Of a stretch of 64,000 bases of DNA, positions 4,945 to 47,100 are shown in pieces. A program made the translations under genes and the position numbers. The stretch's first letter is position 1; each line of letters starts with the position of its first letter. Origin of the DNA: a virus (lineage: Duplodnaviria; Heunggongvirae; Uroviricota; Caudoviricetes); IMG/VR virus record IMGVR_UViG_3300031873_001030, one strand, 5' to 3'. The notes beneath the pieces are model-generated. The model was not told the origin of the DNA, did not search any database, and worked only from the letters and a program-made list of their open reading frames with translations.

Positions 4945-5015
4945 GACAACGAACCTCAGAGATAGAACTTACTGATTCTTAGAATCAGTTGGTTCTTACT
5001 GCGAGGTTCGTTGTC
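4945..5015 (+). repeat. 71-nt imperfect-hairpin element, copy 1 (candidate structured RNA or DNA cruciform site)
   Basis: Outer 13-bp stem GACAACGAACCTC/GAGGTTCGTTGTC, inner stems AGAAC/GTTCT and ACTGATTCT/AGAATCAGT; 50 nt after the ParB-like stop. Confidence 0.8.
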
Positions 5016-5431: not shown

Positions 5432-5491
5432 TTAACATATGATAAAGAGTTGGACCCAGTGCACGGGTGGCATTCCATTAACATATGTTAA
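5432..5491. repeat. palindrome pair (5432-5445 TTAACATATGATAA with 1 mismatch; 5478-5491 perfect) enclosing a 32-bp GC-rich insert
   Basis: Read directly; insert agagttggacccagtgcacgggtggcattcca is 19/32 G+C. Confidence 0.9.
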
Positions 5492-5525
5492 TGAGAAAAG
5501 ATAAGAAATAATGTAAAATGATAAT

Positions 5526-5798: not shown

Positions 5799-5822
5799 AA
5801 TGTATCGTTAACCAAAATTCCA

Positions 5823-5836
5823 TTAACATATGTTAA
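5823..5836. repeat. TTAACATATGTTAA palindrome (within the 42-bp direct repeat 5817-5858 = 5472-5513)
   Basis: Read directly. Confidence 0.95.
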
Positions 5837-5881
5837 TGAGAAAAGATAAGAAATAATGAAAATCAAAAAGAGGTAAAAAAA

Positions 5882-12039: not shown

Positions 12040-12374
12040 GAAAAAAATTCAATTATGAAAACTATTACAAGAAATATTATGAAAGTCATAAGGATAAGCA
12101 CTTGTATTATGTCAATGAATGGAAGAAGAAGCATAAAGATAGTGTAAGAATTTATTCCAAACGTTATTCCAAAAGTTGGAGATTGAGAAACAAAGAAAGA
12201 TTGAAGAAAACTTCAAAAAGATATTATGACAGGCATATCAGAAGTTCTTGGTTCGATAGGATATTTGGTTTCAAATGCAAAGTATGCGGCAAGAGATATA
12301 AAGATAAAAAGGCTTTGGGTGGGCATACCACATATTGTAAAAGAAAAAGGATTGAACTTATTAACATATGTTAA
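12018..12374 (+). CDS. basic Tyr/Lys-rich protein with C-terminal CxxC...HxxxC zinc finger
   Basis: ORF track; stop codon inside palindrome 12361-12374. Confidence 0.5.
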   Translation: MDKGKKMRKKFNYENYYKKYYESHKDKHLYYVNEWKKKHKDSVRIYSKRYSKSWRLRNKERLKKTSKRYYDRHIRSSWFDRIFGFKCKVCGKRYKDKKALGGHTTYCKRKRIELINIC

Positions 12375-12411
12375 AAAGATTGCATGCAGATAACTTCTTA
12401 ACATATGTTAA
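12361..12411. repeat. palindrome pair (12361-12374, 12398-12411) enclosing a 23-bp insert
   Basis: Read directly; insert aaagattgcatgcagataacttc. Confidence 0.95.
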
Positions 12412-12446
12412 TTGCTCGGAAATTCCGAAAAGCAGAAGGTAATGAC

Positions 12447-24479: not shown

Positions 24480-24527
24480 TGTCAAATTAGAAATGCAATA
24501 CGATTGTTAACAAGAAAGTTAACAAAG

Positions 24528-24598
24528 TCTCACCTGCCAGAATTGCACCAGCATCTACGAGGCTACAGCTCGTTGTTCTACTGTTGAACTAAGGCGAG
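24528..24598 (-). tRNA. tRNA-Tyr (GTA)
   Basis: Hand fold CTCGCCT-TA-GTTC-AACAGTA-GAAC-A-ACGAG-CTGTAGC-CTCGT-AGAT-GCTGG-TGCAATT-CTGGC-AGGTGAG-A; C1-G72 as in archaeal/eukaryal tRNA-Tyr. Confidence 0.75.
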
Positions 24599-24601
24599 TT
24601 G

Positions 24602-24674
24602 TGGGGATGCTGAGATTTGAACTCAGATTATTCGCTTCCAGAGCGAAGGTTCTAACAAGTTATACTACATCCCC
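24602..24674 (-). tRNA. tRNA-Pro (TGG)
   Basis: Acceptor GGGGATG/CATCCCC, anticodon arm TTCGC-TCTGGAA-GCGAA, T arm CTGAG-TTCAAAT-CTCAG. Confidence 0.85.
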
Positions 24675-24677
24675 AAG

Positions 24678-24751
24678 GGAGAATAGAGGGATTTGAACCC
24701 TCTCTAACAAGTTCACAGCTTGACGTGCTCGCCTACTACACCATATTCTCC
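24678..24751 (-). tRNA. tRNA-His (GTG) with genomically encoded G-1
   Basis: G-GAGAATA...TATTCTC-C, D stem GTGT/GCAC, anticodon loop CTGTGAA, T arm GAGGG-TTCAAAT-CCCTC. Confidence 0.8.
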
Positions 24752-25212
24752 ATTTTATTATGTTCTTCTCTATGGCAATTTGCACATAGAAGTTTGCATT
24801 TCTGCAATTCTTTTCGTATCACCTCGAGACTATTATGCCATATTCTGGATATTTCATATTTCTTTTCTCCGTTCATATGATGAAATTCAAGTGCTGCGAA
24901 ACATTTGTTATATCCACATTTTTGACATTTACCTCCAAATTCCATTTTCATAATTTTTGTTTTTTCTTGGTTTTTACGCTTTTGTGCTATATACCACAAA
25001 TGTCTCTGAGGGAGAGATGATTTTTGTTTATGTTGTTTTATATATTTTCTCATATATTCTCTATGATATTTTTTCCTTTTTTCTCTGTTTTCAGGGTTTG
25101 ACAACCAAATTTTCCATCGTTCTTTTTCTTGCTCACGGTGTGATTTTCTATATAATCTATTTATTTCACACAATCGTTCTTTGTTTTTTTCATAATATTT
25201 TTTACTGGTCAT
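24736..25212 (-). CDS. HNH endonuclease with N-terminal basic Tyr/Lys-rich region, inserted in the tRNA cluster
   Basis: CQKCGY...LEFHH...N...CANCHREEH; its 3' end overlaps tRNA-His by 16 nt. Confidence 0.8.
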   Translation of the reverse strand: MTSKKYYEKNKERLCEINRLYRKSHREQEKERWKIWLSNPENREKRKKYHREYMRKYIKQHKQKSSLPQRHLWYIAQKRKNQEKTKIMKMEFGGKCQKCGYNKCFAALEFHHMNGEKKYEISRIWHNSLEVIRKELQKCKLLCANCHREEHNKMENMV

Positions 25213-25255
25213 ATAATGTAATTGTTTAATACCATTTATATTTGTTGTTGAACTA

Positions 25256-25330
25256 CGCTCTGGGCAAGACTCGAACTTGCAATTTCTCCGTTAACAGCGG
25301 AGCGCTTGTACCTGTTTAAGCTGCCAGAGC
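25256..25330 (-). tRNA. tRNA-Asn (GTT)
   Basis: GCTCTGG-CA-GCTT-AAACAGGTAC-AAGC-G-CTCCG-CTGTTAA-CGGAG-AAATT-GCAAG-TTCGAGT-CTTGC-CCAGAGC-G. Confidence 0.85.
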
Positions 25331-25333
25331 AAG

Positions 25334-25437
25334 TACTCCCCGAATGATTCGAACATTCGTCTCTTGGTTTCTCCAAGTTTCAGATTCTTGTTGAAATTAT
25401 CAAAGCCAAGCATCTTTGTCCACTGGACGAGGGGAGT
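25334..25437 (-). tRNA. tRNA-Gln (TTG) with a ~31-nt intron after position 37
   Basis: Acceptor ACTCCCC/GGGGAGT (A1-U72); anticodon stem CTTGG/CCAAG enclosing CTTTGA-[intron]-A; T arm GAATG-TTCGAAT-CATTC. Confidence 0.65.
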
Positions 25438-25466
25438 ATATTGATTGTAGTTCTTTTTAAAAACTA

Positions 25467-25538
25467 TGGACACAAGCGGGAATCGAACTCGCATCTCTTT
25501 CTTGCAAGGGAAGTATCCTACCATTAAACGATTGGCCC
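25467..25538 (-). ncRNA. degenerate tRNA-like element (Ala TGC-like anticodon loop CTTGCAA) with mismatches in the acceptor, anticodon and T stems
   Basis: GGGCCAA...TTGTGTCCA pairs at only 5 of 7 acceptor positions (2 mismatches). Anticodon stem CTTCC/GAAAG and T stem GCGAG/CCCGC each carry an A-C mismatch. Confidence 0.35.
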
Positions 25539-25702: not shown

Positions 25703-25729
25703 GATTTATCCCTCTAACGGGATTTATAT
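25703..25729. promoter_or_regulatory. GATTTATCCC-tctaac-GGGATTTATAT hairpin unit overlapping the XPF stop codon
   Basis: Read directly; same unit as 7707-7758 and 43483-43508. Confidence 0.5.
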
Positions 25730-26358
25730 TTTTCAGTCAATATCTTCTTGATTCTAGTTGAAAGTACGTCTCCTATTCCCTTTGCTTTCTGCAAGTCTTC
25801 CTCACTGGCTAAAAGTACTTTTTCAACAGAACCGAGATTTTCCAACAGCCTTTTGGATATTGTCGAATTTACTCCAGGAATGGAGGAGACTATCTGCTCT
25901 TGTATCTTTGACATTTCTGTCGGCACCTTTTCAAATTTGTATGATACAGTTCTTTTGCTTTCAACTTGCTCTTTTTTCGCAAGATGATATATCATTCTGG
26001 CAGTGTCCATTTTGTCCTTAGTATTTACTATGGAAATGTTGAATCTGATGATTAGACTTGCCATAGCGGCTTTCACAATGTTCACATCTATGCGTTCATT
26101 TGGAAATCCTTCTATGATTATGATGACAATCTTAAAATTGTCCTTCATCCTAGTTGTCTGTTCAAATAACCTTCCATCAAATATTGACGCTACAAAATCT
26201 TGATATGTCTTCCTTTCAATCACTGTCCTATCCGAAACTATGAAGTCTCCAACTTCCAAGAAAGATTCATTCAAGTTGACGTTGGCAAAATTTCTCAGAA
26301 AGTATATCAGCTCTTTTTCCCTGGAATCTGCTGATATCGTGATTTTAAATTCTTCCAT
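25714..26358 (-). CDS. short-form XPF/Hef-type ERCC4 nuclease with C-terminal (HhH)2
   Basis: DSRE...VGDFIV...VIERKTYQDFVASIFDGRLFEQ...IIIIEG; C-terminal IPGVNSTISKRLLENLGS...AKGIGDVLSTRI. Confidence 0.85.
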   Translation of the reverse strand: MEEFKITISADSREKELIYFLRNFANVNLNESFLEVGDFIVSDRTVIERKTYQDFVASIFDGRLFEQTTRMKDNFKIVIIIIEGFPNERIDVNIVKAAMASLIIRFNISIVNTKDKMDTARMIYHLAKKEQVESKRTVSYKFEKVPTEMSKIQEQIVSSIPGVNSTISKRLLENLGSVEKVLLASEEDLQKAKGIGDVLSTRIKKILTEKYKSR

Positions 26359-26598
26359 AGTATTATCAGTAATTGCAAAAATATATCTCCGAAATCGGGA
26401 AGGTTACAGATTCACTGGAAACCAGCGAAGCATTGTCGATGCTATGAAATCCTTCCCAGTAGGAGATAAATTTATTTGTGCAGATAATCTTAAATACTTT
26501 AACAACCGATATAATTGTATCTCTCATACAGCTATGGGATTCATAATACAACAACAGGATGTAGTACAGTTTCCGTAGCGATTTTGGAGGGTACATTT

Positions 26599-26859
26599 AT
26601 GGATACCATCACGCTATATATACTTAGAACAAAGCCAGAGACACATTTCTATGTTGGAATTACTAAAGACCTTGATAAGAGATTAGAACAGCATAAAAAT
26701 AATCCAAATGTCTCTTGGGTAAAAAGAAGAAACTTTAAATTTGATTTAGTATGGAGAGAGAAATTTCCTGATTTGAAATCTGCAAGGAAAAAGGAGAAAT
26801 ATTATAAGAAAATGGAAAGGAAAAGACTCTTAAAAATCATTGGGATAAAAGGAGTGTGA
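26599..26859 (+). CDS. GIY-YIG nuclease-domain protein (paralog 1)
   Basis: LYILRTKPETHFYVGITKDLDKRLEQH...RKKEKYYKK; GGAGGG precedes ATG 26599 (track start 26515 is less likely). Confidence 0.8.
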   Translation: MDTITLYILRTKPETHFYVGITKDLDKRLEQHKNNPNVSWVKRRNFKFDLVWREKFPDLKSARKKEKYYKKMERKRLLKIIGIKGV

Positions 26860-30241: not shown

Positions 30242-31066
30242 ATGGCTAAACTTACTGCTACTGTAAATGATGTTGTCATGTTCAAGTCTCTTTTTGGTCT
30301 GTTGTGCAGGAATTCTGATATGCTAAAATTTAAAGTCGATAAGGAAGGTATAAGTTCTGTTACTATGCCTGCGGATATGGCGACTTTTCTTAGTGTTTTG
30401 ATAAAGCCAAATTTCTTTGAGGAATGGAATTTTGAAGGTTCGTTCATGTATTGCTATTTTGACCCGCAGCAATTTTCTCGGATGATGAAGAATCTTACCT
30501 CGAAGAAGATTGAGATGGTGCTTGATGAGAATTATATAAATTTCAGTCTTGAGAACGAGGGAAGAAAGAAACATATCTCATTGGTACAGATTACTGGAGA
30601 ATTGTCAGAGCTTCCTGGGAATTTGGGAACTGATTTTGATTTTTCATGGATTATTGAGATAGAGACTTTGAAAAGCATTGTGGATGATATTGTCAATGTC
30701 GATGACAATGCGGATTTGTCTTCCATCTATTTCACATGGGAAAAAGACAGTCTGAAAGTTGAAGCAAGGGAGAGTAAGGTCATGAAGTTTGAGACTATTA
30801 TTGGCCCACCTTTTGTGAAATGTGGTAGCGGGCATTCTTCTTTTAGGACCAATTATTTTTCAAAGATAGTCTGGGCTGGTCTTGGTAAGATTAGATTTTC
30901 AATCTTGAATACTGACGGTCCAGCTTTTATGGAGACTTGTGATGATAGCAAGTTCTCATTGAAATTTATTGTGGCGCCTTTTGTGGCAAGTAATCCTGAT
31001 ATGGATATCACGTCCGAGAATGACGGTAAAAGTTCACAAGATAGTGAGGTGGTAAGTGATGGGTAA
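30242..31066 (+). CDS. divergent PCNA-like sliding clamp with acidic C-terminal tail
   Basis: Colinear resemblance to archaeal PCNA recalled from memory: FKVDKEGISSVTMPADMATFLSV vs FKVTEDGISMRAMDPSRVVLIDL, and terminal LKFIVAPFV vs LTFLLAPRV; ~250-aa core. Confidence 0.65.
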   Translation: MAKLTATVNDVVMFKSLFGLLCRNSDMLKFKVDKEGISSVTMPADMATFLSVLIKPNFFEEWNFEGSFMYCYFDPQQFSRMMKNLTSKKIEMVLDENYINFSLENEGRKKHISLVQITGELSELPGNLGTDFDFSWIIEIETLKSIVDDIVNVDDNADLSSIYFTWEKDSLKVEARESKVMKFETIIGPPFVKCGSGHSSFRTNYFSKIVWAGLGKIRFSILNTDGPAFMETCDDSKFSLKFIVAPFVASNPDMDITSENDGKSSQDSEVVSDG

Positions 31067-31520
31067 ATGTACAGCGTGTGGAAAAAACATAGGAATGTTT
31101 GGTAGCAGCAAGTCTTGCGATGCTGAAGATTGTAAAGTTGAAGGTCTGTGCAAGGAATGTTCGTCTGCCAAATTGTCAGACTGCGAAAAATGCGGATATA
31201 CATTCTGCATTGCTCACATAAAAAATCATGAATGCGAAGAGGAAAGTGATAAGGAAGAGAGTGAGGATTCTGAAGATGGAGAAGAGGAGGAAGAGCCTGT
31301 TGAATTGTCTGAAGATGATGTCCATATCTCAAAGGATAAGAAATTTAAGATGCTTCTTTTGGAAGATTACTATAATGAAGATATTGTAAACTTCCTTGAA
31401 GAGACGGAAAAGGAAGGGTATGTGCTTATCGGCACCGATATGGGCAATAGCATGTACTTATTCAAGAACTTTTCTTTAGAAAAGAAAAGTTCACAAAAGA
31501 AAGAAGGAGAAAGTGCATGA
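31056..31520 (+). CDS. Cys-rich zinc-finger (AN1-like second half CxxCx4CxxHx3HxC) protein with an acidic linker
   Basis: CEKCGYTFCIAHIKNHEC; Glu/Asp-rich run. Confidence 0.5.
   Translation: MMGKCTACGKNIGMFGSSKSCDAEDCKVEGLCKECSSAKLSDCEKCGYTFCIAHIKNHECEEESDKEESEDSEDGEEEEEPVELSEDDVHISKDKKFKMLLLEDYYNEDIVNFLEETEKEGYVLIGTDMGNSMYLFKNFSLEKKSSQKKEGESA
31466..31492. repeat. GAACTTTTCTT-tagaa-AAGAAAAGTTC palindrome plus ACAAAAGAAA tail, inside the 3' end of ORF 31056..31520
   Basis: Read directly. Confidence 0.9.
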
Positions 31521-31547
31521 AGAATCAAGAATCAGAAAATTCTTTGT

Positions 31548-31569
31548 ATACTTTCTTTGAAGAAAGTAT
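31548..31569. promoter_or_regulatory. ATACTTTCTT-tg-AAGAAAGTAT palindrome upstream of the SPFH gene
   Basis: Part of the 29-bp block TTCTTTGTATACTTTCTTTGAAGAAAGTA (31541-31569), repeated exactly at 33876-33904; followed by GGAGGT and ATG 31587. Confidence 0.85.
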
Positions 31570-31586
31570 TTGGAGGTTATAAAGAA

Positions 31587-32483
31587 ATGATAATGACAAC
31601 AGGAAGTTGGATATTGGCAGGATTAGGTGCCTTCATATTCATAATGTTTCTTTCTGGAATAAGGATAGTAAGGCCTTTGGAAAGGGGTTTGGTTGAAAGG
31701 TTTGGTAAGTATCATAGGTTTGCCATGCCAGGTTTCAATTGGATAATCCCAGTATTTGACAGCATGTACAGAATCAACATCACCGAGACTATGGTGAATG
31801 CTGAACCTCAGCAGATTATTACTATGGATAAACTGAATGCCACAGTTGATGCGCAGGTTTATTTCAAGGTAAAAGATGATGAGACTTCTGTGAAGGCTTC
31901 TCAATATAACGTCTACAACTACAGGTACCAGATTGTAAATCTTGCGAGGACTACTCTGAGAAACATCATAGGTACGATGTCCCTTACTGATGCAAATAGC
32001 AAGAGGGATGTGATAAACAAGGATTTGATGGATACTCTCAGTGTCGAGACAAAGAATTGGGGTATACAAGTTGTGAGGACTGAATTGAAGGAGATAGACC
32101 CGCCAGAAGATGTACAAGCTACAATGAACAGGGTAGTGAAAGCGGAGAATGAAAAGATGGCTGCCATAGACTTTGCAACAGCTGCAGAGACTCAGGCAGA
32201 TGGTCTTAAGAGAGCGAAGATAAAGGAAGCGGAAGGTCTGAGGCAATTTGAGATATTGCGTGCAGAAGGTAATAAGCAGGCGACTATACTTGAAGCTGAC
32301 GGAAGAGCTCAGGCTATCAAGCTTGTGAATGAGGCTGCAGAAAAGTATTTCATTGGAAATGCCCAGAAATTGAAGACTCTCGAAGTCACTCAGAGTTCAT
32401 TGGAAAGCAATACAAAAATAATAGTTCCGAACGACCAGAAAATCATAAATGTGATAGGAAACTTAATCGGCGAAAAATTATAG
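31587..32483 (+). CDS. SPFH/band-7 (stomatin/prohibitin-like) membrane protein
   Basis: N-terminal TM, then IRIVRPLERGLVERFGKY...GFNWIIPVFD...VDAQVYFKV and a C-terminal coiled Ala/Glu-rich region. Confidence 0.85.
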   Translation: MIMTTGSWILAGLGAFIFIMFLSGIRIVRPLERGLVERFGKYHRFAMPGFNWIIPVFDSMYRINITETMVNAEPQQIITMDKLNATVDAQVYFKVKDDETSVKASQYNVYNYRYQIVNLARTTLRNIIGTMSLTDANSKRDVINKDLMDTLSVETKNWGIQVVRTELKEIDPPEDVQATMNRVVKAENEKMAAIDFATAAETQADGLKRAKIKEAEGLRQFEILRAEGNKQATILEADGRAQAIKLVNEAAEKYFIGNAQKLKTLEVTQSSLESNTKIIVPNDQKIINVIGNLIGEKL

Positions 32484-32484
32484 A

Positions 32485-32506
32485 GAAACTTTTTCAAAAA
32501 AGTTTC
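32485..32506. repeat. GAAACTTTTT-ca-AAAAAGTTTC palindrome 1 nt after the SPFH stop
   Basis: Read directly. Confidence 0.85.
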
Positions 32507-32564
32507 ATCAAAAAATCTGTGGTAGGGTTTGGTATATTGATTTTGTTAGTGAGGAGTATATAAA

Positions 32565-32807
32565 ATGACGAAAACAATAGTTGAGGAAAGTGTGATGCCG
32601 CATAAAAATGATTTCAGTTTTGACGAAGGAAAATCTTTTCTTGTAGAGGAATTTAAGATTAATGATAATCTTAGAAGAAGATATGTGAAGCTTATTGACC
32701 AGCATGGAAAATTCGAATTGTCTTTGTCACAGTTCAAATGGATTGTTGAAAAAGTCAATTGCATAGAATCTGAAGTAAATGTATATGAAAAACAATTGAG
32801 ATTGTGA
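32565..32807 (+). CDS. hypothetical protein
   Basis: ORF track. Confidence 0.45.
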   Translation: MTKTIVEESVMPHKNDFSFDEGKSFLVEEFKINDNLRRRYVKLIDQHGKFELSLSQFKWIVEKVNCIESEVNVYEKQLRL

Positions 32808-33193
32808 ATATGAAAAATATAAAGATAACGACAAAAATTTGTGACAAGCATTTTGCAATTTTGAGATATGAAAGTGATGATATGATTAGTGCGAAGAAGG
32901 TTTTCAATAAGCTGAATTGTAAGTTTAATTTCAAAGAGACTTGGTTCGTATCTGTTGATGGGATGATTTTTTCCATATCTTTCTGCCTTTATACTTGGTC
33001 GAAATACAAGTCGATGATTTATGCAAAAGGTATTTCAAAGAATTTCCGTGAAGGATGTTTGAAGGATAGGTGCGGTTGTCTTGTGTTGAAACCTGGCTGC
33101 AAGTTTAAAGTATTGTACAAATTCAATCAGGAGCGTTCGAATCAGGAACTTAAGAATAGCATTCAAGATATATTAACTAGGAAAGAATTATAA
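32804..33193 (+). CDS. hypothetical protein
   Basis: ORF track; 4-nt overlap. Confidence 0.45.
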   Translation: MNMKNIKITTKICDKHFAILRYESDDMISAKKVFNKLNCKFNFKETWFVSVDGMIFSISFCLYTWSKYKSMIYAKGISKNFREGCLKDRCGCLVLKPGCKFKVLYKFNQERSNQELKNSIQDILTRKEL

Positions 33194-33200
33194 TTATGGA

Positions 33201-33222
33201 GAACTTTCTTCAAAGAAAGTTC
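33201..33222. promoter_or_regulatory. GAACTTTCTT-ca-AAGAAAGTTC palindrome plus ACAAAGAAA tail
   Basis: Read directly; followed by GGAGGT and ATG 33247. Confidence 0.85.
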
Positions 33223-33246
33223 ACAAAGAAATTGGAGGTAACTGGT

Positions 33247-33501
33247 ATGAGTAAAGAAGCTGCAAGTAAGGAAGATGGTAGAGGAAGAAACGCAGTTTCT
33301 TCCCTAATGCATAAGCTGAAGATGGAAAAAAGATATAAAGGTAAGAAGATTGTTTCGATGAAGGAACGGTTCCTTAAGACTGCGCATCAGAGAGGGAAGA
33401 TGAAAAAAGGAATGACTAAATCCCAGATGAAGAAAGAAATCAAGCAAAGATTAAAAGATAAAAAACCAATATATCAATCAAGGCTTACCGATTATGTTTA
33501 A
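33247..33501 (+). CDS. small basic Lys-rich protein (track start 33196 lies before the palindrome)
   Basis: GGAGGT 8 nt before ATG 33247; in frame with the track ORF. Confidence 0.45.
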   Translation: MSKEAASKEDGRGRNAVSSLMHKLKMEKRYKGKKIVSMKERFLKTAHQRGKMKKGMTKSQMKKEIKQRLKDKKPIYQSRLTDYV

Positions 33502-33829
33502 GAAGAAAAAAGTTTCGGCGAGACAGGAAGTAGAAGATATACGGAATAAAGTACATCAATCTGTACATTCTAAAGATAGGATGTCTTTAAAGGAAGAGCT
33601 TGATGAACTTCATGCACAGATACATGAGTCTGGAAAAGTTCGGATGCCTACTAGGGGGGAGATATATGGACATCCAACAAAGCCGATTGGAATCTGCTTG
33701 AAATGCAAAAAGATGTTTCCGACTGAGCAGCTTCAACGTTATTATATAAATCCAGAAGAGTGTTATTGGTTGTGTCCAAAGTGCGGTTTCAAGAAAAGAA
33801 TGAGAGAAAAGTTTTCATCGAGATTATAA
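33494..33829 (+). CDS. protein with C-terminal zinc ribbon (CLKC...CPKC)
   Basis: ORF track. Confidence 0.5.
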   Translation: MFKKKKVSARQEVEDIRNKVHQSVHSKDRMSLKEELDELHAQIHESGKVRMPTRGEIYGHPTKPIGICLKCKKMFPTEQLQRYYINPEECYWLCPKCGFKKRMREKFSSRL

Positions 33830-33882
33830 TTAAGTGATAAGAGGCAATAGAAAGTGAAAGAAGAAATCATTAATTTCTTTGT

Positions 33883-33904
33883 ATACTTTCTTTGAAGAAA
33901 GTAT
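33883..33904. promoter_or_regulatory. ATACTTTCTT-tg-AAGAAAGTAT palindrome abutting the PrimPol-like start
   Basis: Identical to 31548-31569. Confidence 0.85.
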
Positions 33905-33905
33905 T

Positions 33906-34622
33906 ATGATAGAAGATGAAATTATAAGCGGGAGAATTTCTATTGGTCGGGTTGGTATTTATCTTAATGCTAAGACTAAAGGTGGTTACAATATAGGATT
34001 TAATTTTCTTAATAGTCCAGAGCTGAGGACTGCGGGCGTGTGCAATATCACGAAGGACCAGATGTTTATAATGTTTGCTGATTTTGACAATATAGGTTAT
34101 GAAAAACTTAAAGACCAGTTGGATTTCATAAATAGGAATCATGATGTGAGCAATTTTCTTGTTCTTACGACTGGAAAGAATCGATATCATGTGATAAGTT
34201 TTGAAAAATTCTGGAAACAGGAATTAGTTGACATATTGAAGAATACTTTCTGCGATTATACGTATAAAAGTTTTGTTCCGTTGAAAGTTGACAAGGGCTG
34301 GATACTTAGGGTGACTGAAAAGAGGGATTTGGATAATAATGTTGTGAAGGACAGGCCTGAATATGTAGAATCGTTTTCTTATTCTGAAGTCCCTAAGAGG
34401 AGATTGTCGCGTGCTCACGTAGAATTTTTTTCGAGAATGTATCCTGAATTCAGGAAATTTGCAGAGGAGAAGCTTGATAAAAATTATTGGGATGAGTTTA
34501 CTGTGATTCAGCTGCTGAAATATGGGACAAGCCATGAGAATCTTATTGCAAAATTTGACTTGAAGGATTTGATAGATTCCAAGAAGCTTGAAATAGTGTG
34601 GAAGGACAATATATTTGATTAG
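33906..34622 (+). CDS. archaeo-eukaryotic primase (AEP)/PrimPol-like replication protein (tentative)
   Basis: FIMFADFDNI (hhhDxD) and LTTGKNRYHVISF (sGxxxH) occur in the order and spacing of AEP motifs I and II; motif III is unclear. Confidence 0.5.
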   Translation: MIEDEIISGRISIGRVGIYLNAKTKGGYNIGFNFLNSPELRTAGVCNITKDQMFIMFADFDNIGYEKLKDQLDFINRNHDVSNFLVLTTGKNRYHVISFEKFWKQELVDILKNTFCDYTYKSFVPLKVDKGWILRVTEKRDLDNNVVKDRPEYVESFSYSEVPKRRLSRAHVEFFSRMYPEFRKFAEEKLDKNYWDEFTVIQLLKYGTSHENLIAKFDLKDLIDSKKLEIVWKDNIFD

Positions 34623-34623
34623 T

Positions 34624-34694
34624 GACAATGAACCTCAGAGTAGGAACCAACTGGAAAGTGGAATCAGCAAGTCATAACTGCGAGGTTCATTGTC
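34624..34694 (+). repeat. imperfect-hairpin element, copy 4
   Basis: Outer stem GACAATGAACCTC/GAGGTTCATTGTC; starts 2 nt after the stop of 33906..34622. Confidence 0.75.
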
Positions 34695-34739
34695 AGGCTT
34701 TTATTGTACAAAAACGAAGATTAATATTGAGGACCTTTT

Positions 34740-35402
34740 ATGACCGATATCGATGCCGAAAAAGTTTGGAGCTCTCTTAGAAGGGAAAAGACATTGGATT
34801 TGTTAGGGCTTACTGACAGTGAATTGAGGGATATTGTTGATTCGCTTATTGATGAGGCTGGATTTCCTGCGACTAATTTGGGAGATGAAGCTAGGGAATT
34901 GCTGACAGATGAGGCTAGAAAGGAAGCTGGTCCTGAGGAGGAAGTTGAAAGAGAAAAAGAGATAGAGGAAGCAGAAGAAGTCACTGAAGAAGAGCTTGAA
35001 GCTGCTAGGGAAGGAAGAGCTGAAGAGAGAAGGGAAGAGCGTCTTGAACGTCTTGGAGAAAGGAGACCAAGAAGGGAAAGAGGAGTTGGAATTGAGCCTA
35101 TGGAATTGCCTAAAGTGAAGATTCCAGAAGAGAGGATTCCAGAAATAAGAGTTCCTCCTGGAGTTGAACTTCCAGTTATTCGGGAATTTGAAACTCCATC
35201 TAAGCGCATGGAAAGGGTCATAGGTGAAGTTGAGGGTGGTGTAGAGAAGAGAATAAAAGAGACTGATGAAAAGACAAAAGAGATTAGTAAAGGTCCAGTT
35301 AGTTTTGGCCAGAGAGTTGCCGATACTGCAAGAAATGTGAGGGATACTGTTATTAATGTTTCAAAGCGTATAATTGATAGAATAAGGCAATTAGGTAGAT
35401 AA
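34740..35402 (+). CDS. Glu/Arg-rich acidic protein
   Basis: ORF track; preferred over the Ser-rich antisense ORF 34721..35221. Confidence 0.55.
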   Translation: MTDIDAEKVWSSLRREKTLDLLGLTDSELRDIVDSLIDEAGFPATNLGDEARELLTDEARKEAGPEEEVEREKEIEEAEEVTEEELEAAREGRAEERREERLERLGERRPRRERGVGIEPMELPKVKIPEERIPEIRVPPGVELPVIREFETPSKRMERVIGEVEGGVEKRIKETDEKTKEISKGPVSFGQRVADTARNVRDTVINVSKRIIDRIRQLGR

Positions 35403-35408
35403 TCTTTA

Positions 35409-35490
35409 TGTGATGAGTTAGGGTCCGATGGGGTAAGTTAGGATATTGTGAGGTCGGATGTGGTATGTTTGGTGAGGTAAGGTATGGTCC
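35409..35490 (+). repeat. short GGTNN tract filling the intergenic gap
   Basis: gttag ggtcc gatgg ggtaa gttag ... ggtga ggtaa ggtat ggtcc gatat ggttt. Confidence 0.7.
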
Positions 35491-35502
35491 GATATGGTTT
35501 AA

Positions 35503-35982
35503 GTGATTGATATGAAAATTGAAGTAAGGATGCACCATCTTAGCGAACTTAAGAGAAAGTTGCTTGATTCTGATATGAATCATACCAAGTATATTTTACT
35601 GGATGAGATGAGAGCGACGATAGATAAGTTGAAGGGTGACAGGAATCTCATGTTCAAGATTGTTGCTATGATGTCGAAAGTGACTACTGCTTCTCGGTTG
35701 ACTACTGAAGGGATGATAATGGCTTTGGAAAATATGGTTTTGTTTGATATAATGCAATATGATATTTTACAGGATGGTGATGTGACTGTTTTGAATCTGA
35801 ATGTTGATGATAATTATTTTGAGATTTTTAACAAGATTCCTCTGATTGGCAGGTTTATCTCAACTCTTTCTGGAGGAAGAAAAAGATATTTGGAAGAGGT
35901 GAGAAAAACTATAGAGGAGGATTATACAAAAGATTATACACTGAAAATAATCATGGATGATACAAAGGAGGTTCATGAATAA
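35503..35982 (+). CDS. hypothetical protein
   Basis: ORF track. Confidence 0.5.
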   Translation: MIDMKIEVRMHHLSELKRKLLDSDMNHTKYILLDEMRATIDKLKGDRNLMFKIVAMMSKVTTASRLTTEGMIMALENMVLFDIMQYDILQDGDVTVLNLNVDDNYFEIFNKIPLIGRFISTLSGGRKRYLEEVRKTIEEDYTKDYTLKIIMDDTKEVHE

Positions 35983-36239
35983 TGAATCGCGTCACATTGT
36001 ACATATTAAAATGCGATAATGGAATGTTTTATACTGGTATTACTAGAGATTTAAAAAAGAGACTTTTTCAGCATAGAAATTGTAAAAGTTCTTCATTTGT
36101 AAAAAGAAGAAATTTAAATTTTGATGTTGTTTATACTGAAACTTTTGGGAATTGGACACTTGCTAGAAAAAAGGAAAAATATTATAAGAAGATGAATAGG
36201 GAAAAATTAAAAAAAATTATAAAGAGTGTGACGCGATGA
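35982..36239 (+). CDS. GIY-YIG nuclease-domain protein (paralog 2)
   Basis: LYILKCDNGMFYTGITRDLKKRLFQH...RKKEKYYKKM; colinear with 26599..26859. Confidence 0.8.
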   Translation: MNRVTLYILKCDNGMFYTGITRDLKKRLFQHRNCKSSSFVKRRNLNFDVVYTETFGNWTLARKKEKYYKKMNREKLKKIIKSVTR

Positions 36240-36646
36240 ATTCACTTGTGTGGATTTTGTTGATACTTTATGTTCTGATAGGTGTTGGAGTAGCTGTCAG
36301 CAAGAAATGGATAACGAATAGCACGGGTGAGATAAACTTGCAGAATGTGTTGAGGCTGCAGACTTGGACAAGATTGTTTTTCAATCCATGGACTGTTTTG
36401 ATTTTAGCGGTCTCTATAGGATTGTTCGGAGTTTCTATGTGGGTGTTTTCTCTTGAGAAAGCTAACAGTATAATTTTAGTGAGCATGGTTCTTGGATTAC
36501 CAGCTACGTTGTTCAACGTATTCTTGAATAAGAGGATTCTTGGTGAGATTGTGTCATCTTCACAGTACGTTCCAATTTCTATGACTGTTGTCGGTTATAT
36601 GCTGATGATTGCTGGAGTCTGGTATTTCGTTGGAGGGATAAAGTGA
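36236..36646 (+). CDS. four-TM small transporter-like protein (EamA/SMR-like; possible lipid-sugar flippase subunit)
   Basis: Four hydrophobic helices; function inferred only from the glycan-cluster context. Confidence 0.5.
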   Translation: MNSLVWILLILYVLIGVGVAVSKKWITNSTGEINLQNVLRLQTWTRLFFNPWTVLILAVSIGLFGVSMWVFSLEKANSIILVSMVLGLPATLFNVFLNKRILGEIVSSSQYVPISMTVVGYMLMIAGVWYFVGGIK

Positions 36647-36771
36647 AATTGTCAGATGAAGATAAAAAAGTCTTGAAGGATAAGAAATGGTGGGTTCTTT
36701 TAGCGTTTTCTTTGCTGCTTCTTGGAGTTTTTATATGGTTTGTTAGTTCTCACAGTGGAGCAGGTTTATGA
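36643..36771 (+). CDS. 42-aa single-TM peptide
   Basis: GTGA and ATGA overlaps with both neighbours. Confidence 0.35.
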   Translation: MKLSDEDKKVLKDKKWWVLLAFSLLLLGVFIWFVSSHSGAGL

Positions 36772-37862
36772 AGATAGCAATTCTATTTGATTTCATAGAA
36801 GGATGTGCGGGTGGAGAGAAGTTGTTAAAATTCCTAGCTCAAAAATATGATGCTGATATTTATACTGGCTATGTGGATTGGGACAATACTTATCCAGAAT
36901 TTAAGAATATGCGTATAACTGTCATAGGAAAAATATCAAAGATTCAGATATTGAAGCAGGAGATGCTGATAAGAAGTTTCAGGAAATTGGATTTGTCTGG
37001 ATATGATAAGATAATATGTCTTGGATTGTATTCAATCTACGCAGCGGAGAACTTTTCTTTGAAGAAAAGTTCACAAAAGAAATCAGAGATAATTTGGTAT
37101 CCTTATGGAGTGAGTCCTTTCTACAAAAAGAGAGCCAATATGGATGATAGTTTTGCTAATCAGAGTTTGATTTGGAAGATAGGTGCTTGGATATTGACGC
37201 AAAGGACTAAAGGATATAATAAAAAGATTGTTCAAAATAATATTGACAGGATAGTGACGATATCCACGTATTCAAGGAAATCTTTCAGGGAATATTATGG
37301 AAGGGATTCTGCTGTGATATCGCCGCCAGTGGATATGGATAAACATTATTGGAAACAAAACAAAGGATACTATCTGATTGTATCAAGGTTGCTTGCTGGA
37401 AAGAGAGTTGACTTGGTGATAGAGGCTTTCAAAAAAATGCCAGACAAGATTCTTTATATCGAAGGGATAGGTCATATGGAAAATAAATTGAAGGAGCTTG
37501 CAAATGGATATGATAATATAAAATTTCTTGGAAGGATTCAGTCTGACAAGCTTCCAGAACTTTATTCTGAATGCATAGCTTTTGTGGGAACTGCTCTATA
37601 TGATGATTGGAGCATGCCTATGGTGGAAGCTTTGGCATCAGGGAAACCTTGCATAGCTGTGAATAAGGGGGCATATCCTGAAATCATAAATGACAGGGTT
37701 GGCATATTGGTTGAAGGGACGCCAGAAGGGATAATTGCAGGTGTGAATAAGATTACTCCAGGAATCGCTGAGAGCATGAAGGATGAGTGCATCAAAAGGG
37801 CAAGAAGATGGGGCATGGTAGAATTTGGAAATAAATGGGATAAGATATGCGAAGTATATTAA
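36768..37862 (+). CDS. GT-B glycosyltransferase (GT4-like)
   Basis: C-terminal WSMPMVEALASGKPCIAVNKGAYPEII (E-x7-E type motif). Confidence 0.8.
   Translation: MKIAILFDFIEGCAGGEKLLKFLAQKYDADIYTGYVDWDNTYPEFKNMRITVIGKISKIQILKQEMLIRSFRKLDLSGYDKIICLGLYSIYAAENFSLKKSSQKKSEIIWYPYGVSPFYKKRANMDDSFANQSLIWKIGAWILTQRTKGYNKKIVQNNIDRIVTISTYSRKSFREYYGRDSAVISPPVDMDKHYWKQNKGYYLIVSRLLAGKRVDLVIEAFKKMPDKILYIEGIGHMENKLKELANGYDNIKFLGRIQSDKLPELYSECIAFVGTALYDDWSMPMVEALASGKPCIAVNKGAYPEIINDRVGILVEGTPEGIIAGVNKITPGIAESMKDECIKRARRWGMVEFGNKWDKICEVY
37049..37072. repeat. GAACTTTTCTT-tg-AAGAAAAGTTC palindrome plus ACAAAAGAAA tail, in frame inside the GT4 gene
   Basis: Read directly; encodes ENFSLKKSSQKK. Confidence 0.9.
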
Positions 37863-42583: not shown

Positions 42584-43328
42584 TTTGGTACAATTCAATT
42601 GTTCTATTTGGAAAACCAAAAGAATTTGATGTGTTTACTTCTTCATCATTTTGAGGTTCGATGAAAATTCTACCTTTGTCTGTAGTGTTGAATATTATTA
42701 TTGCATGCCCTATTGTGTAATTTTTCCATTCAATATATACTAAGCCAATACTGATGTGTTGTTTAAGAGAATTTAATATGATGTCTCGACTAAAGTCCCA
42801 ACAATTATAAGTTTCATTATATGTGTTTTCATTTGTCTTATCAGTAGCTATGAAATTTTTCATATCATTATATGTTGGGTCTTGAGAATTTTCATAGAAA
42901 AGGTAGTCATTTAAATTCCACGTATTACGATAGAATGTTGTCAAGTTAGTTGTGTTAAAGACTGATATATTTGTTATGTTCAATACTGTCAAATTAGTTG
43001 TGTTAAAGACTGATATATTTGTTATGTTCAATACTGTCAAATTAGTTGTGTTAAAGACTGATATATTTGTTATGTTCAATGTTGTCAATTCTGTTATGTT
43101 CGTTACGTTTAATACTGTGATATTAGTTATGTTAAGAATTTTGATGTTTGATATCGAACTGTTGACTAAATTTATCTTATCGTCTAAAAGAGTTTTTACA
43201 CTGCTTAGTTCATTTTGTGTGGAAGTTAGACTTTTTTGTATTTCAGATGTTTTTTGAATCTGAAAAATTATTGTAATCAAGGTTGCAATAAAAATTGTGG
43301 AAAAGACGAAGATTGTCTTTGAATCCAT
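42573..43328 (-). CDS. membrane-anchored protein: NIT/NTT 16-aa repeats plus a C-terminal Cys-His domain (possible thiol-peptidase/transglutaminase-like core)
   Basis: TM helix near the N-terminus; NITNISVFNTTNLTVL x3; YNCWDF...IGHAIIIF...IEPQNDE. Confidence 0.65.
   Translation of the reverse strand: MDSKTIFVFSTIFIATLITIIFQIQKTSEIQKSLTSTQNELSSVKTLLDDKINLVNSSISNIKILNITNITVLNVTNITELTTLNITNISVFNTTNLTVLNITNISVFNTTNLTVLNITNISVFNTTNLTTFYRNTWNLNDYLFYENSQDPTYNDMKNFIATDKTNENTYNETYNCWDFSRDIILNSLKQHISIGLVYIEWKNYTIGHAIIIFNTTDKGRIFIEPQNDEEVNTSNSFGFPNRTIELYQIIW
42939..43082 (-). repeat. 48-bp tandem repeat x3 (near perfect), with degenerate copies to ~43140, inside CDS 42573..43328
   Basis: Units start at 42939, 42987 and 43035. 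Confidence 0.9.
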
Positions 43329-43919: not shown

Positions 43920-44162
43920 TGTGAGTTGAAGAAAACATGTCACATGGGGAAAAAAGACAGAGAAGGAAAAAAACTAAGAAGCAAAGGCAAAGAAAAAGGA
44001 TGAAAGAGAGGAGAGACAAAGGGAGGTAATCTATGAATGAGATTGACATCCATGAAATGAATTATTTCATCGACATGGTGTCACCAGCTTATCAAGATGA
44101 GTTGTGAAAAAAATGAGATGCGAAAACAATAGGGGTAATTGCCCAATTTGGAGGGTTTTGTA

Positions 44163-47100
44163 ATGGCAAATAGTATTTTTGGTCAGCCTCAGCCAAATCC
44201 ATTTTCACCAGGCACGACATTGCCGTCATCAAATGTAAGTGTGACGCCAAGTATGCCCATTGGTGGATTGACTGTAGGATTAGGAGGAAGTGGAAATGTT
44301 TATTATGGAGGAGCGCCTGCTGGAGGAGTTGGTCAGACTACAACAACAACTGGAGGTCCTGCGATTTATATTCCTCCACAGGAGACTGCAAAAGCAGCAG
44401 AAAAAACAATAACTCCTGCTTTGATTCCTGAAATAAAACCGCCAACTTTAAAAGTTGGTGTCGGCGGATTGGTAGAAGGTTTGGGAAAATCTGGTAATGT
44501 ATATGAAGGTGGTGTGCTTGTTGGAGGTACTACTCCATGGGGTCCTGTAGTTAAGGAAGGTGGTGTCAGTTATGTCCCAACTGGAAGGACAGCTGAAACT
44601 GGAGAGACAATTTATTCTGGAACTCAGATAAGTTCTGCAACACCTATTGGAACTTTTGTGCCTGCAAAGAGAATTGAAATAACTCCACTGATGCCAGAGA
44701 TTAGTGTACAACCAGCTACAGCTGGTGCTATAGGTCTTTCATTTCCTGCAGGTGTTTTGTCTGTAAAATCTGGTCCAGTTGATGTGAGCAAACTTTCTCC
44801 AGATGTGCAGACTGCGTTGGGAAATCTTCAAGGAAAGGTGCAGGCTGAATATCCAGGATTCAAGCTTGCAAGTTGGACTCGTGAAGGTGATGAGCTGAAA
44901 GGTGTTTTGGAACCTGTGAAGTATGTCTCACTTGGAACTGATGTTACGAAAGCGACTGCTGCCATAAAGGATTTGGGATTGAAAGAAGGTGATTATAAAT
45001 TATATACTGGAATTGGTGGGGATTATCAGCTTGTGACTGATAAGGTGTCAAGCCAGAAATACGTGAGTGGTCTTCTTTCCAGTTATTCAGTTATTCCTAT
45101 AACTGGGTATGGACAGTATAGAGGGTCTGATGAGAGGATTGCATTGAAGTTTCTTGATAAGGAAGGTTATATCAAAGATGGTGTGATAAGCAAAGATGTT
45201 CAAGTGATAGGGGATATAGGAGTAGGAGGAACTGGTGCGATGATAGTTTTAAAGGGAAGTACAAAGAGTTCTGAAGATTTGTCAAAGACTTATTTTTCTT
45301 CCTTGACTGAAGTGCAGAAGGAAGATACTGCGATGGCAAGAGGAGAGTTGCAGATTGCTCAGGAAAAGGAACTTTTGAGACAACCTGGTATGAGTGTTGA
45401 AAAGGGAGCTGCTTGGTGGAATTTGAATGTTGGTCCTTATATGCTTTCTCCAAAGGACCCTCTTGGTCTGAGGAGTGCTTACATAGGAGTTGAAGGTTTG
45501 GTAAAAGGAACTCCTGTCAGTGTCATACAAAAGGACATAGAAGCTAGCAGGCTTTCTGCAGAACAGGAATTTCTTCAGAGAAAATATATGGGAGAGTCTT
45601 GGACTAAATCATTATGGGAAGCTCCTGCAACGCAGCCTTTGAAAGTTGCTGCTACTTGGTATGGCGGTGGTCTTTTGTTGGGAGGTGCTGCTGGAGTTCT
45701 TAAAACTGCTGAAGTAGGTGCTGGTATAGTATCAAAAGCTCCATGGCTTGCAACTACAGGAAGAGTTATTTCAACTGCTGGAAAAGTTGCGACAAGTGTT
45801 CCAGGACAAGTTGTAATTGGTTCAGGATTGTATGGTTTTACTGAAAGAGGAAATATAATGGCACTTGCAAAAGGAGGTGTTCCAAGAGACATTGTTCCTG
45901 GAATGATTTTTGACGCATCACAATTTGGATTTGCATATGGCGGTGCAGCTGCAGGTTTTCCAGTTGGTTATTCTAGAGGTGCTGGATTGGGTTATGCTTT
46001 CAAGCCTGGTGCATTGCCTCCATCTGAAACATTCGTGGCAGAAATCAGAGGGACTGGAGTATCTGGAATTCCAGGTGAATTGCAAGGATTGAAACTTGGG
46101 ACAAGGGTTGCTGGAGAAGTTCCAAAGGGTTTTGTTCCAAAAGGATTTAGTGAAGGTGTTCCTTATAGGGCGTTCTTGCAGGAGGGTGTGACAGTTACAA
46201 GAGCTGGAGAAGTTGTACCTTCTGGGACTTTGATGCCAACTATTGCAGAAATGGAACCTGCAAAACCTTTGATGCAGAGGATTGCCACTGCAATGACAAA
46301 GCCAAGCGAATTGATTCCTAAGATGCTTCCTGGAGGACCTACTGTTGAAGCTCCTTTTCTTGAATCAATCAGATATGGTGAAGAAAAGATAGCGAAAGGA
46401 GGAACTAAGGATATTTATGCTGCAGGTTATCAGCCAGGAACTACAATATGGTCAAGATTGAAGATGCCTGTTGAAGGAGCGCAGTATGGGATTGCTGAAG
46501 GTTTTAAGACTGTTACAGCTGAGAGTCCTCTTGCTTCGTTGACAGAAAAATACACTACAAGGATGGCATTGAGAGCTACTGGCGCTCCTATTGAAGCGGG
46601 AGATGTTGTTCCAGTGAAAATAATGGCAAAGACAGATTTTATTGTAAATGATGAAGGGATAGCTGCGATGTTGAAATCTGGAAAGAATCTTGCAGATATT
46701 GAAAAATTGAAAGGTGCTGATATAATACAGCGTGATATTGAATTTGCAGATAAGCCTGCTGTAAGGTACACTAGATTTATTGATAAGGAAACTGGAAAAT
46801 CTTTGGTTGTGTTGAAGCAGACTGCAGCTCCTACAATAGAGGAAGTTGTTGCTTTGGCAGAGGAAGGAAAGACTTTGATAAAACCTGAATATGTTGGAGG
46901 AAAGGTTGCAGGCTATAGTATAAGAGGTACTGAAATAGTTGGAGAGGGGAAAGAATTTGCAGGAGGAGTGCGTTATAAAAAGGGTGTTGAAGTAGTTGGT
47001 AAGGAACAAGTGACAGGAATAGCTCTTGATGATAAGACATTTAACGCATTGATGGATAAATATGGAAACAAGATATTGAGGGTTTCATCTCCGACAACTG

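Follow-up and report, generated by a model that had tools for sequence, protein, structure and literature searches.

A candidate mobile or recombinogenic hairpin repeat at gene junctions of IMG/VR record IMGVR_UViG_3300031873_001030

Repetitive extragenic palindromes (REPs) are 20-40-bp palindromes, probably mobile and in some cases located within genes (PMC3733652). Archaea, too, are reported to have REP-like repeats (PMC12306157). Rickettsia palindromic elements (RPEs) are ~150 bp long, form about ten families, contain an open reading frame (ORF) for a conserved peptide, and have been inserted dozens of times in genes (PMC10969869). Here, we describe a palindromic repeat in a 64,000-nucleotide (nt) stretch of IMG/VR record IMGVR_UViG_3300031873_001030, referred to below as the window. 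The repeating unit is a perfect hairpin of 22-27 nt (core ACTTT(T)CTT-nn-AAG(A)AAAGT), with an A-rich tail, ACAAA(A)GAAAT[C/T].., on one side, and has a total length of ~35-45 nt. Six copies, all perfect palindromes with arms of 10-12 bp and a loop of 2-3 nt, lie within 5.6 kb. The module bearing them encodes a divergent PCNA, a zinc-finger protein, an SPFH protein, small ORFans and an AEP-like protein, and continues to a glycosyltransferase of family GT4. An earlier note on this DNA had listed the same six copies, and we find all of them where it placed them. We favour, with a probability of roughly 55%, a short mobile or recombinogenic palindromic repeat that is REP-like, lineage-specific and has incidental effects on expression.

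In architecture, the closest described systems are REPs and their relatives, the bacterial interspersed mosaic elements (BIMEs) and REPINs. Like the repeat described here, these have a short hairpin with an asymmetric end, are mostly extragenic and near gene ends, and are occasionally intragenic. They too occur in both orientations and as inverted doublets, form genome-specific families, and are polymorphic for presence or absence (PMC3733652, PMC12306157). There are also differences. The REP tag, GTAG or CGTC (PMC3733652), flanks no copy in the window, and the other end of our element is the tail ACAAAGAAAT. REP stems are imperfect, whereas those here are perfect. REPs are dispersed genome-wide, whereas we find six copies in 5.6 kb of the ~80 kb read (the window plus 16 kb of extra sequence, fetched via flanking genes, from the same 92-kb contig, k141_1406800 of ERZ27247974). 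The host of the element is an archaeal-type, possibly extrachromosomal, replicon. Finally, no match to the REP-associated tyrosine transposase (RAYT, an IS200/IS605-like Y1 HUH enzyme) was found in about 49 of the ~80 candidate window ORFs, including all those of at least 150 amino acids (aa), or in the precomputed L015/L016 annotations.

The likeness to RPEs, drawn in the earlier note, stands as a concept. In both cases, a palindromic repeat can be translated in frame inside an ORF without destroying the protein (here GT4, with 9 aa in a surface loop). The likeness does not extend to size or number, since our element measures 35-45 nt, rather than ~150 bp, and accounts for one true internal insertion (GT4) and one C-terminal read-in (the zinc-finger protein). 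Note that length and organisation, not sequence comparison, set the two apart. MITEs, or miniature inverted-repeat transposable elements, are similarly non-autonomous, multicopy and inverted-repeat in nature, and able to fuse in frame with host ORFs (PMC10969869). However, MITEs are 70-300 bp long, with 15-30-bp terminal inverted repeats around an internal region, and generate target-site duplications (PMC3733652). The element here is essentially one hairpin, with no duplication resolvable. We conclude that it belongs to a familiar class, that of small selfish or regulatory repeats, and that its sequence family is new.

Empty sites and insertion into genes

We compared the window with small fragments of related genomes (L007, L010, L012, L014, L018, L019, L020 and L021). 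Two of these, L010 and L007, come from one sample and have ~80% nt identity to the window. Two others, L012 and L020, belong to the bin ZINK19-1. In the sister contigs L007, L010, L014, L018, L019 and L020, none of the six sites is occupied.

The GT4 ORF (36768-37862) contains the copy at 37049..37090 on the + strand, with a hairpin at 37049-37072 (GAACTTTTCTT tg AAGAAAAGTTC; 11-bp arms) and the tail ACAAAAGAAATCAGAGAT. The closest relative of the encoded protein, P0002/L007 (77% aa and 80% nt identity), has a clean empty site. At this site, GCAGAG directly joined to AAAAAT in L007 corresponds to GCGGAG, 27 nt and AAGAAA in the window. The net gain (27 nt, 37050-37076) is in frame and adds residues N95-Q103. 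In an alignment of 25 GT4 homologs, a check proposed in the earlier note, this segment (NFSLKKSSQ, residues 95-103) is found only in the window protein and is absent from 24 of 24 others. The GT4 copy is the sole true internal insertion in frame (+27 nt, 9 aa). In an AlphaFold model of the protein (mean pLDDT 90), the segment lengthens a helix at its end, together with the loop that leads to the following strand, and the local pLDDT is 73-76. The insertion site is plausibly tolerant. Similarity to the other copies continues for ~15 nt beyond the 27 nt gained (..AAGAAATCAGAGAT), a pattern that suggests patch-like replacement, via short homology (GAG.. / ..AAGAAAT), rather than cut-and-paste. 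Two other interpretations were rejected. A simple target-site duplication (AGAA or AA) is incompatible with a net gain of 27 nt. Similarly, a recombination junction within GT4 is excluded by identity to L007, which is ~80% on both sides of the insertion.

Two more copies lie at the junction between the zinc-finger and SPFH genes. In L010, these genes overlap by 4 nt, so that the zinc-finger stop lies in the SPFH start (ATGA), and the Shine-Dalgarno (SD) sequence AAAGGAG is inside the 3' end of the zinc-finger gene. Alignment with L010 at the nt level reveals that the window keeps the same SD, spacer and ATG (TTGGAGGTTATAAAGAAATGATAA, 31570-31593). Between zinc-finger codon K137 and this ancestral SPFH SD there are ~104 nt (31466-31569). 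Hence, the copies at 31466 and 31548 are one inserted doublet, arranged tail-to-tail. The left half (31466..31503, + strand) has a hairpin at 31466-31492 (GAACTTTTCTTT aga AAAGAAAAGTTC; 12-bp arms, loop AGA) and the tail ACAAAAGAAAG. The right half (31536..31569) is on the - strand. Its tail reads, on the + strand, as AAAATTCTTTGT (31536-47) and its hairpin (31548-31569; ATACTTTCTT tg AAGAAAGTAT) abuts the SPFH SD, TTGGAGGT (31570-77). As the earlier note had it, this copy precedes GGAGGT (31572-77) and ATG 31587.

The zinc-finger ORF reads 17 codons into the doublet, to a TGA at 31518-20, and so has a new C-terminal tail, NFSLEKKSSQKKEGESA. Homologs of the protein form 39 clusters, and none aligns past about residue 141 of 154. 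The aligned homologs end ..YLF(K/R)K(K/L)G.. and the tail peptide occurs in none. These 17 element-encoded residues are a C-terminal replacement, not an internal insertion. We had considered a 30-nt in-frame insertion before 'KKEGESA', but dropped this since the nt alignment shows the downstream SD and ATG to be ancestral. The doublet also created a 21-codon ORF (MKNQESENSLYTFFEESIWRL, then stop; 31517..31582, + strand). Its ATG overlaps the zinc-finger stop (ATGA), it crosses the hairpin at 31548-69, and it ends 4 nt before SPFH ATG 31587. The old ATGA arrangement therefore persists, as ATG 31517 over the zinc-finger TGA, and the 21-codon ORF could preserve translational coupling.

The earlier note had reported the peptides KNFSLEKKSSQKK (zinc-finger ORF) and ENFSLKKSSQKK (GT4 ORF), which are translated as described. 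The likeness between them, NFSL(E)KKSSQKK, arises because shared element DNA is read in the same frame. The accompanying claim, that the element resides in frame inside two ORFs, holds for the internal insertion in GT4. The zinc-finger copy is instead a 3'-terminal case, in which the gene reads into the element.

The remaining sites (after SPFH, after a 129-aa ORF and before the 238-aa ORF of the AEP-like protein) have no copy in L010/L007, L014, L018/L019 or L020. Conversely, L012 is a second carrier. This fragment (2,978 nt, ~74% nt identity, gene order PCNA-zinc finger-SPFH-...) has five perfect copies and one degenerate copy, at partly different junctions. One L012 doublet is between the zinc-finger and SPFH genes, as in the window. 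The other separates PCNA from the zinc-finger gene, where the window genes overlap. A third cassette is 5'-truncated, and gives a 16-residue C-terminal extension to a 145-aa ORF. The post-SPFH copy of L012 is the degenerate one. The copy at this position is followed in the window by an ORFan of 80 aa and in L012 by one of 56 aa, the two being dissimilar on inspection, and L010/L014 have no ORFan. The junction before the 238-aa gene varies too among relatives. From these comparisons, the element is polymorphic between genomes, at variable junctions of a plastic module, and its copies were gained recently, after this genome split from the element-free sisters. The suggestion, in the earlier note, of a small mobile or recombinogenic hairpin is thus supported, as regards insertion, by the empty sites and by polymorphism between relatives. 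A separate sign of plasticity is seen in L018 (800-870), where a PCNA-like gene is followed by the last 14 SPFH codons (KLINVIGNMIGEKL, then stop), with the zinc-finger gene and most of SPFH deleted.

The earlier note had named two outcomes that would refute it, and neither is seen: the peptide segment is absent from homologs, as described above, and copy number is not at the level of chance. Counting perfect stems with arms of at least 10 and loops of no more than 6, the window has 9 hairpins, compared with 0.74 +/- 0.82 (maximum 4) in 200 dinucleotide-preserving shuffles. The element supplies 6 of the 9. A covariance model of the hairpin, built from six 26-nt copies, recovers exactly these six in the window, each with E <=0.005 on at least one strand, and the next match has E = 0.15. 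The same model detected no further copy in the 16 kb of extra source-contig sequence or elsewhere in the window, which together make ~74 kb outside the cluster. Hence, the enumeration that the earlier note had called for yields the six clustered copies, with L012 as second carrier, and none in the other ~74 kb read. Four of the six copies are extragenic, in a window that is ~82% coding. Either strand is predicted to fold as RNA at -7 to -12 kcal/mol, with z-scores of -2 to -4.6, in support of hairpin formation.

Wider searches returned few leads. An 18-nt hairpin core matched 5 loci in viral_contigs; the 3 with the core on the scanned strand have unrelated flanks and are chance matches. A 24-base degenerate pattern of the element had 0 matches in metagenome_contigs and 1 in genome_contigs, which was unrelated and bacterial (Scatosoma). 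Comparison of 30.5-38 kb with phage records, using blastn, gave no match, and the GT4 and AEP-like proteins have no relatives in IMG/VR. The zinc-finger homologs diverge too far for their alignment to have seeded a search for the locus. A family search with the 129-aa ORF found two small contigs only, both element-free. With Rfam 15, only tRNAs reach the gathering score in the whole window, and the best sub-threshold match in 31000-37500 is the FdoG1 thermometer (22 bits, against a gathering score of 50). PHROGs, applied to ten ORFs, gave nothing but a weak ParB-like match.

One asymmetric unit in two orientations

The three remaining copies are each close to a gene boundary. The copy at 32485..32522 (+ strand) is a diverged variant, with a hairpin at 32485-32506 (GAAACTTTTT ca AAAAAGTTTC) and the tail ATCAAAAAATCTGTGG. 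A single nucleotide separates it from the SPFH stop (TAG 32481-83), as previously noted, and the 80-aa ORFan, specific to the window, is next. The copy at 33201..33233 (+ strand) has a hairpin at 33201-33222 (GAACTTTCTT ca AAGAAAGTTC) and the tail ACAAAGAAATT. It lies 7 nt past the stop of ORF 32804-33193, and its site is empty in L010 and L018/L019. Directly after it are an SD, GGAGGT (33234-39), and ATG 33247, in agreement with the earlier description. The last copy is on the - strand, with its hairpin at 33883-33904 and its tail at 33873-82. This hairpin (ATACTTTCTT tg AAGAAAGTAT) is identical to that at 31548-31569. A single nucleotide parts it from ATG 33906, the start of the AEP-like 238-aa ORF, which it was correctly said to abut. 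A forward remnant faces it, so that the whole spans 33849..33904. The remnant consists of a 3'-arm-like sequence, AGAAAGTG (33849-56), and a tail, AAAGAAGAAATCA (33857-69). Arm lengths are 10 bp at 31548, 32485, 33201 and 33883, 11 bp at 37049 and 12 bp at 31466.

The earlier note had treated copies upstream of genes, followed by GGAGGT, as a kind distinct from those with a tail. This distinction fails. Reverse complements of the copies at 31548, 33883 and L012 606/1164/2805 align with those at 31466, 33201, 37049, 32485 and L012 521/1061. The alignment spans the hairpin, the CA loop and the tail ACAAAGAAAT. Upstream and tailed copies are thus one element in opposite orientations, and the notion that all copies share one orientation was dropped. 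Furthermore, the SDs beside the copies at the SPFH and zinc-finger junctions are orthologous to those of element-free L010, and are ancestral target sequence rather than part of the element. Two more details of the earlier description stand in part. The literal motif of its title is at 33201 only, and the other copies have self-complementary variants of it. Tails are indeed present at 31466 and 37049, and the copy at 33201 is tailed too.

Four window copies are forward (31466, 32485, 33201, 37049) and two reverse (31548, 33883); in L012 the numbers are 3-4 and 3, respectively. Doublets, joined tail to tail, are present at 31466-31569 in the window and at 521-627 and 1061-1185 in L012, with a remnant doublet at 33849-33904. 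Half-copy remnants facing a full copy are found at 33849-33869 and in L012. Among the 11 perfect copies in the window and L012 there are eight distinct stems, and every one is self-complementary. The stems vary in their outer pairs (GA..TC or AT..AT), by a symmetric indel (TTT/AAA versus TTTT/AAAA), and by changes of C-G to T-A and T-A to C-G, with a G.T pair in two L012 copies. That both arms change together within a single genome points to intrastrand pairing or templating, and away from a protein that reads a fixed half-site.

Flanks at the head of the element, in its own orientation, are GGAG, AGAG or CAAG for forward copies and of CCTCCAA type for reverse copies. The heads adjoin GGAG on the + strand whichever the orientation. 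This adjacency may reflect either target preference or survivorship at ribosome-binding sites.

Mechanism and competing explanations

If the element is indeed a mobile or recombinogenic repeat, a folded single strand would be the form in which the unit is copied, or else copying would proceed by template switching, or by gene conversion over short homology, among nearby copies. Local copying fits the confinement of all copies to 5.6 kb. The perfect arms would be maintained by intrastrand templated correction. Survivors would be those copies that spare genes, either because they are intergenic, because they lie at the last codons of an ORF and supply a new tail and stop, or because, as in GT4, their length is divisible by three and they sit in a surface loop. 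Side effects on expression would be likely and secondary. For example, the doublet has uncoupled the overlapping zinc-finger and SPFH genes and made the 21-codon bridging ORF. In reverse orientation, the U-rich tail could pair with the adjacent SD, and an RNA-level role, such as masking of the ribosome-binding site, is possible.

Several points weigh against this interpretation. The scanned window ORFs and the precomputed L015/L016 annotations yielded no transposase, HUH/Y1 enzyme or integrase, and no target-site duplication or fixed cleavage tag is resolvable at 80% divergence. The copies are few and strictly local, whereas true REPs are genome-wide; within the preferred reading, such clustering favours patch-like replacement through short homology over cut-and-paste. 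The truncation of the third L012 cassette, inside an ORF end, fits recombination between cassettes better than transposition. The tendency for forward copies to follow stops, and for reverse copies to precede starts, could reflect function rather than neutral survival. Finally, the basis is ~80 kb of one genome plus small fragments of its relatives.

The best-surviving alternative, to which we give clearly less credence, holds that the copies are regulatory RNA punctuation cassettes, kept for their function. A forward hairpin would be a 3'-end or stability element, and a reverse hairpin a stem-loop in the 5' untranslated region, with a U-rich flank masking the SD. Spread would be by homologous recombination, with shuffling of ORFans. 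The model for this is the PeSL (promoter early stem-loop) of T4-like phages, a composite terminator/promoter repeat of hyperplastic regions. PeSLs are repeated intergenic stem-loop units, concentrated in a plastic region whose small ORFans share one direction of transcription (PMC2839356, PMC4122927), and our element is placed in the same way. PeSL cassettes border indels of unrelated ORFans between close relatives. The same is seen here, in the non-homologous ORFans right after the post-SPFH copy, and the truncated L012 cassette resembles a recombination product. Placement is also as expected. Forward copies are 1-14 nt past stops (32485, 33201 and L012 1061), and reverse copies are directly before an SD or start (31548, 33883 and L012 606, 1164 and 2805). 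For 5 of 5 reverse copies, the sense RNA is predicted to fold 1.5-6.6 kcal/mol better than the antisense, because the tail, read as UUUCUUUGU, pairs with the adjacent GGAGG. This conserved flank does so by G.U pairing, and the SD is predicted to be paired in 3 to 4 of the 5 cases, most clearly in the three from L012.

Other observations are difficult to reconcile with regulatory cassettes. The two supposed modules are one element in two orientations, so SD masking would be a by-product of orientation. Moreover, the SPFH and zinc-finger SDs are ancestral, by comparison with L010, and not supplied by a cassette. PeSLs have a strong sigma-70 promoter and a working terminator. In our scan, which addressed bacterial-type signals in what is an archaeal-type replicon, promoter- and terminator-like signals were not above shuffles and none coincided with a copy. 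No U-tract follows the stems, which are rich in AU (-7 to -12 kcal/mol). The GT4 copy is without regulatory logic, and PeSL-type recombination would leave both this intragenic copy and the use of two orientations unexplained. In addition, the same genes are expressed in sister genomes that have no copy. Separately, an archaeal TATA-like reading of TTTGTATA, at reverse copies, was rejected. It would place the start sites within the SD, and a purine run resembling a B recognition element is lacking.

A broader proposal, which we regard as speculative, starts from a more distant relative, L021 (NCBI GCA_964352345.1, CAYGRS010000001.1; 106 kb), whose AEP-like gene is 50% identical. Between 1620 and 20680, L021 has its own, unrelated, hairpin-plus-tail family, (CAT)GCCGTCGCTATTAGCGACGGC-CAGTCAC and variants (GCCGTCG..CGACGGC-CAGTCA(C/A)), with six copies over 20.7 kb. 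The + strand has five of them and the - strand one; a called ORF (10705-10974) encloses one copy, and another spans the stop of that ORF. The AEP-like gene has a different hairpin, GTGAAATCCAAGGGATTTCAC, 22 nt upstream of it, in the same relative position as the window copy at 33883. The L021 family also counts in favour of the preferred interpretation. On this basis, hairpin-plus-tail repeats might be general in this group of archaeal-type replicons, with one family per genome: ACTTTCTT..AAGAAAGT-ACAAAGAAAT in the window and L012, and GCCGTCG..CGACGGC-CAGTCAC in L021. Their insertion beside GGAG or SD motifs would be due to an enzyme not yet recognised, or to a mechanism linked to replication, and the host would exploit anti-SD tails, bridging upstream ORFs and new C-terminal tails to rewire how nearby genes are translated.

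Could the palindromes instead act as duplex DNA, bound by a dimeric protein at an operator, partition site or origin element? A palindrome centred on 2-3 nt is the classic form of a site bound by a dimer. The copies cluster around replication-type genes (the divergent PCNA and AEP-like 238-aa protein) and iteron-like repeats (35410-35500). Candidate ligands would be a winged helix-turn-helix (wHTH), ParB-like or zinc-finger protein encoded nearby, and the window encodes a ParB-like protein and several wHTH proteins. Nevertheless, we consider this unlikely. The half-sites differ (ATAC or GAAC outer, TTT or TTTT, C-to-T), and arm length (10-12 bp) and half-site spacing vary, yet each copy is perfectly self-complementary. 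One copy is within a glycosyltransferase gene, and sisters with the same genes have none of the sites.

Lower still in probability, and close to refuted, is that no shared element exists. Here, low-complexity palindromes would arise by chance or in situ, with purine-rich coding sequence (AAGAAAG) inverted at each site by replication template switching. The coding strand is purine-rich and the 3' arm does resemble ordinary Lys/Glu codons and SD-like sequence. However, the empty GT4 site (GCAGAG joined to AAAAAT) has neither arm, so the whole hairpin and tail were added. Furthermore, loop and tail are common to the copies beyond the palindrome, and the excess of hairpins (9 against 0.74) is large.

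Integron attC sites are at least ~55 nt long and imperfect, with extrahelical bases and RYYYAAC/GTTRRRY (R''/R') cores, and an IntI integrase is encoded nearby. Integron-like sites between gene cassettes would account for same-direction small ORFs parted by palindromes after stops, for cassette content that differs among relatives and for hairpins bounded by AAC...GTT, but we find the idea scarcely credible, given perfect hairpins of 22-27 nt whose flanks (GGAGAAC / GTTCACA) misfit attC cores, copies that also precede starts, take either orientation and, in one case, lie within a gene, and no integrase among the scanned window ORFs.

The replicon and the meaning of the element

Nearly all window genes are on the + strand and most ORFs have no family assignment. 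The PCNA-like sliding clamp (274 aa, 30242-31066), whose ORF overlaps the zinc-finger ORF at its 3' end, is very divergent. It matches Sulfolobus/Aeropyrum PCNAs from the PDB with a phmmer E of 0.003, and has no Pfam match. Other recognisable genes encode an ERCC4-HhH nuclease (25714-26358), a PD-(D/E)XK nuclease (10650-11186), the ParB-like, SPFH and wHTH proteins, and a glycosyl-/methyltransferase block. Genes for a MoxR/VWA pair and a DNA ligase are found upstream on the contig, and STT3/AglB and family-B polymerase genes adjoin relatives of the GT4 block. The replicon is probably of archaeal type, and possibly a large plasmid or virus. Two small GIY-YIG ORFs (26515-26859 and 35982-36239) have ~69% nt identity over 213 nt. 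One is 0.8 kb upstream of GT4. Five tRNA genes are at 24527-25538, on the minority (-) strand. ARAGORN identifies Tyr, Pro, His and Asn, and the fifth (25468-25538) is detected by Rfam only. Giant ORFs of 3,752 aa (49389-60647, with four DUF285 stretches), 1,340 aa (44139-48161), and 1,736 and more than 1,460 aa (L016 11197-20276, both beyond the window) are arranged in a row and look like surface or adhesin-type proteins.

The replicon has other repeats. Similar long hairpins, TGACAA[T/C]GAACCTCAGAG ... CTGCGAGGTTC[A/G]TTGTCA, lie at 34622-34700 and 4940-5016. They are intergenic and ~75% identical, with imperfect stems of 30-36 bp and no Rfam match, and could be a structured RNA, origin or packaging element. 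In the gap downstream of the AEP-like block (35410-35500) there are three direct repeats of ~21 nt (GGTCCGATGGGGTAAGT / GGTCGGATGTGGTATGT / GGTCCGATATGGTTTAAGT) that look like iterons. Akin to these, motifs of GGTATGGTATGG type occur in intergenic gaps of L010, L014 and L021. The other, 'first', palindrome family, (CA)TTAACATATGTTAA(TG), is at 698-715, 1575-1626, 2312-2374, 5476-5493, 5821-5838 and 12360-12412. Its sites are single or in pairs 15-31 nt apart, it is also present upstream of the window (L015 2140-2157), and it looks like the operator of a dimeric regulator. Finally, Logan contig L001 starts at 33876, just upstream of the hairpin at 33883, and ends at 42975. A 37-nt direct repeat (42940-42975 versus 43035-43071) recurs 60 nt on from that end. 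Breaks in k-mer assemblies of this genome are caused by repeats of such size.

The locus shows, in compact and natural form, a tiny repeat reshaping genes in a poorly known lineage. Coupled, overlapping genes became separate cistrons with a 21-codon bridging ORF, one protein gained a 17-residue tail and a glycosyltransferase gained a 9-residue loop. Each change has its empty-site counterpart in a sister genome. At present, the use of this is mainly in annotation, since the element accounts for unusual extensions at C-termini, for spurious short ORFs and for breaks in assembly, such as the start of L001. If a dedicated insertion mechanism, or a role in translation, were true, REP-type biology would extend to archaeal mobile replicons.

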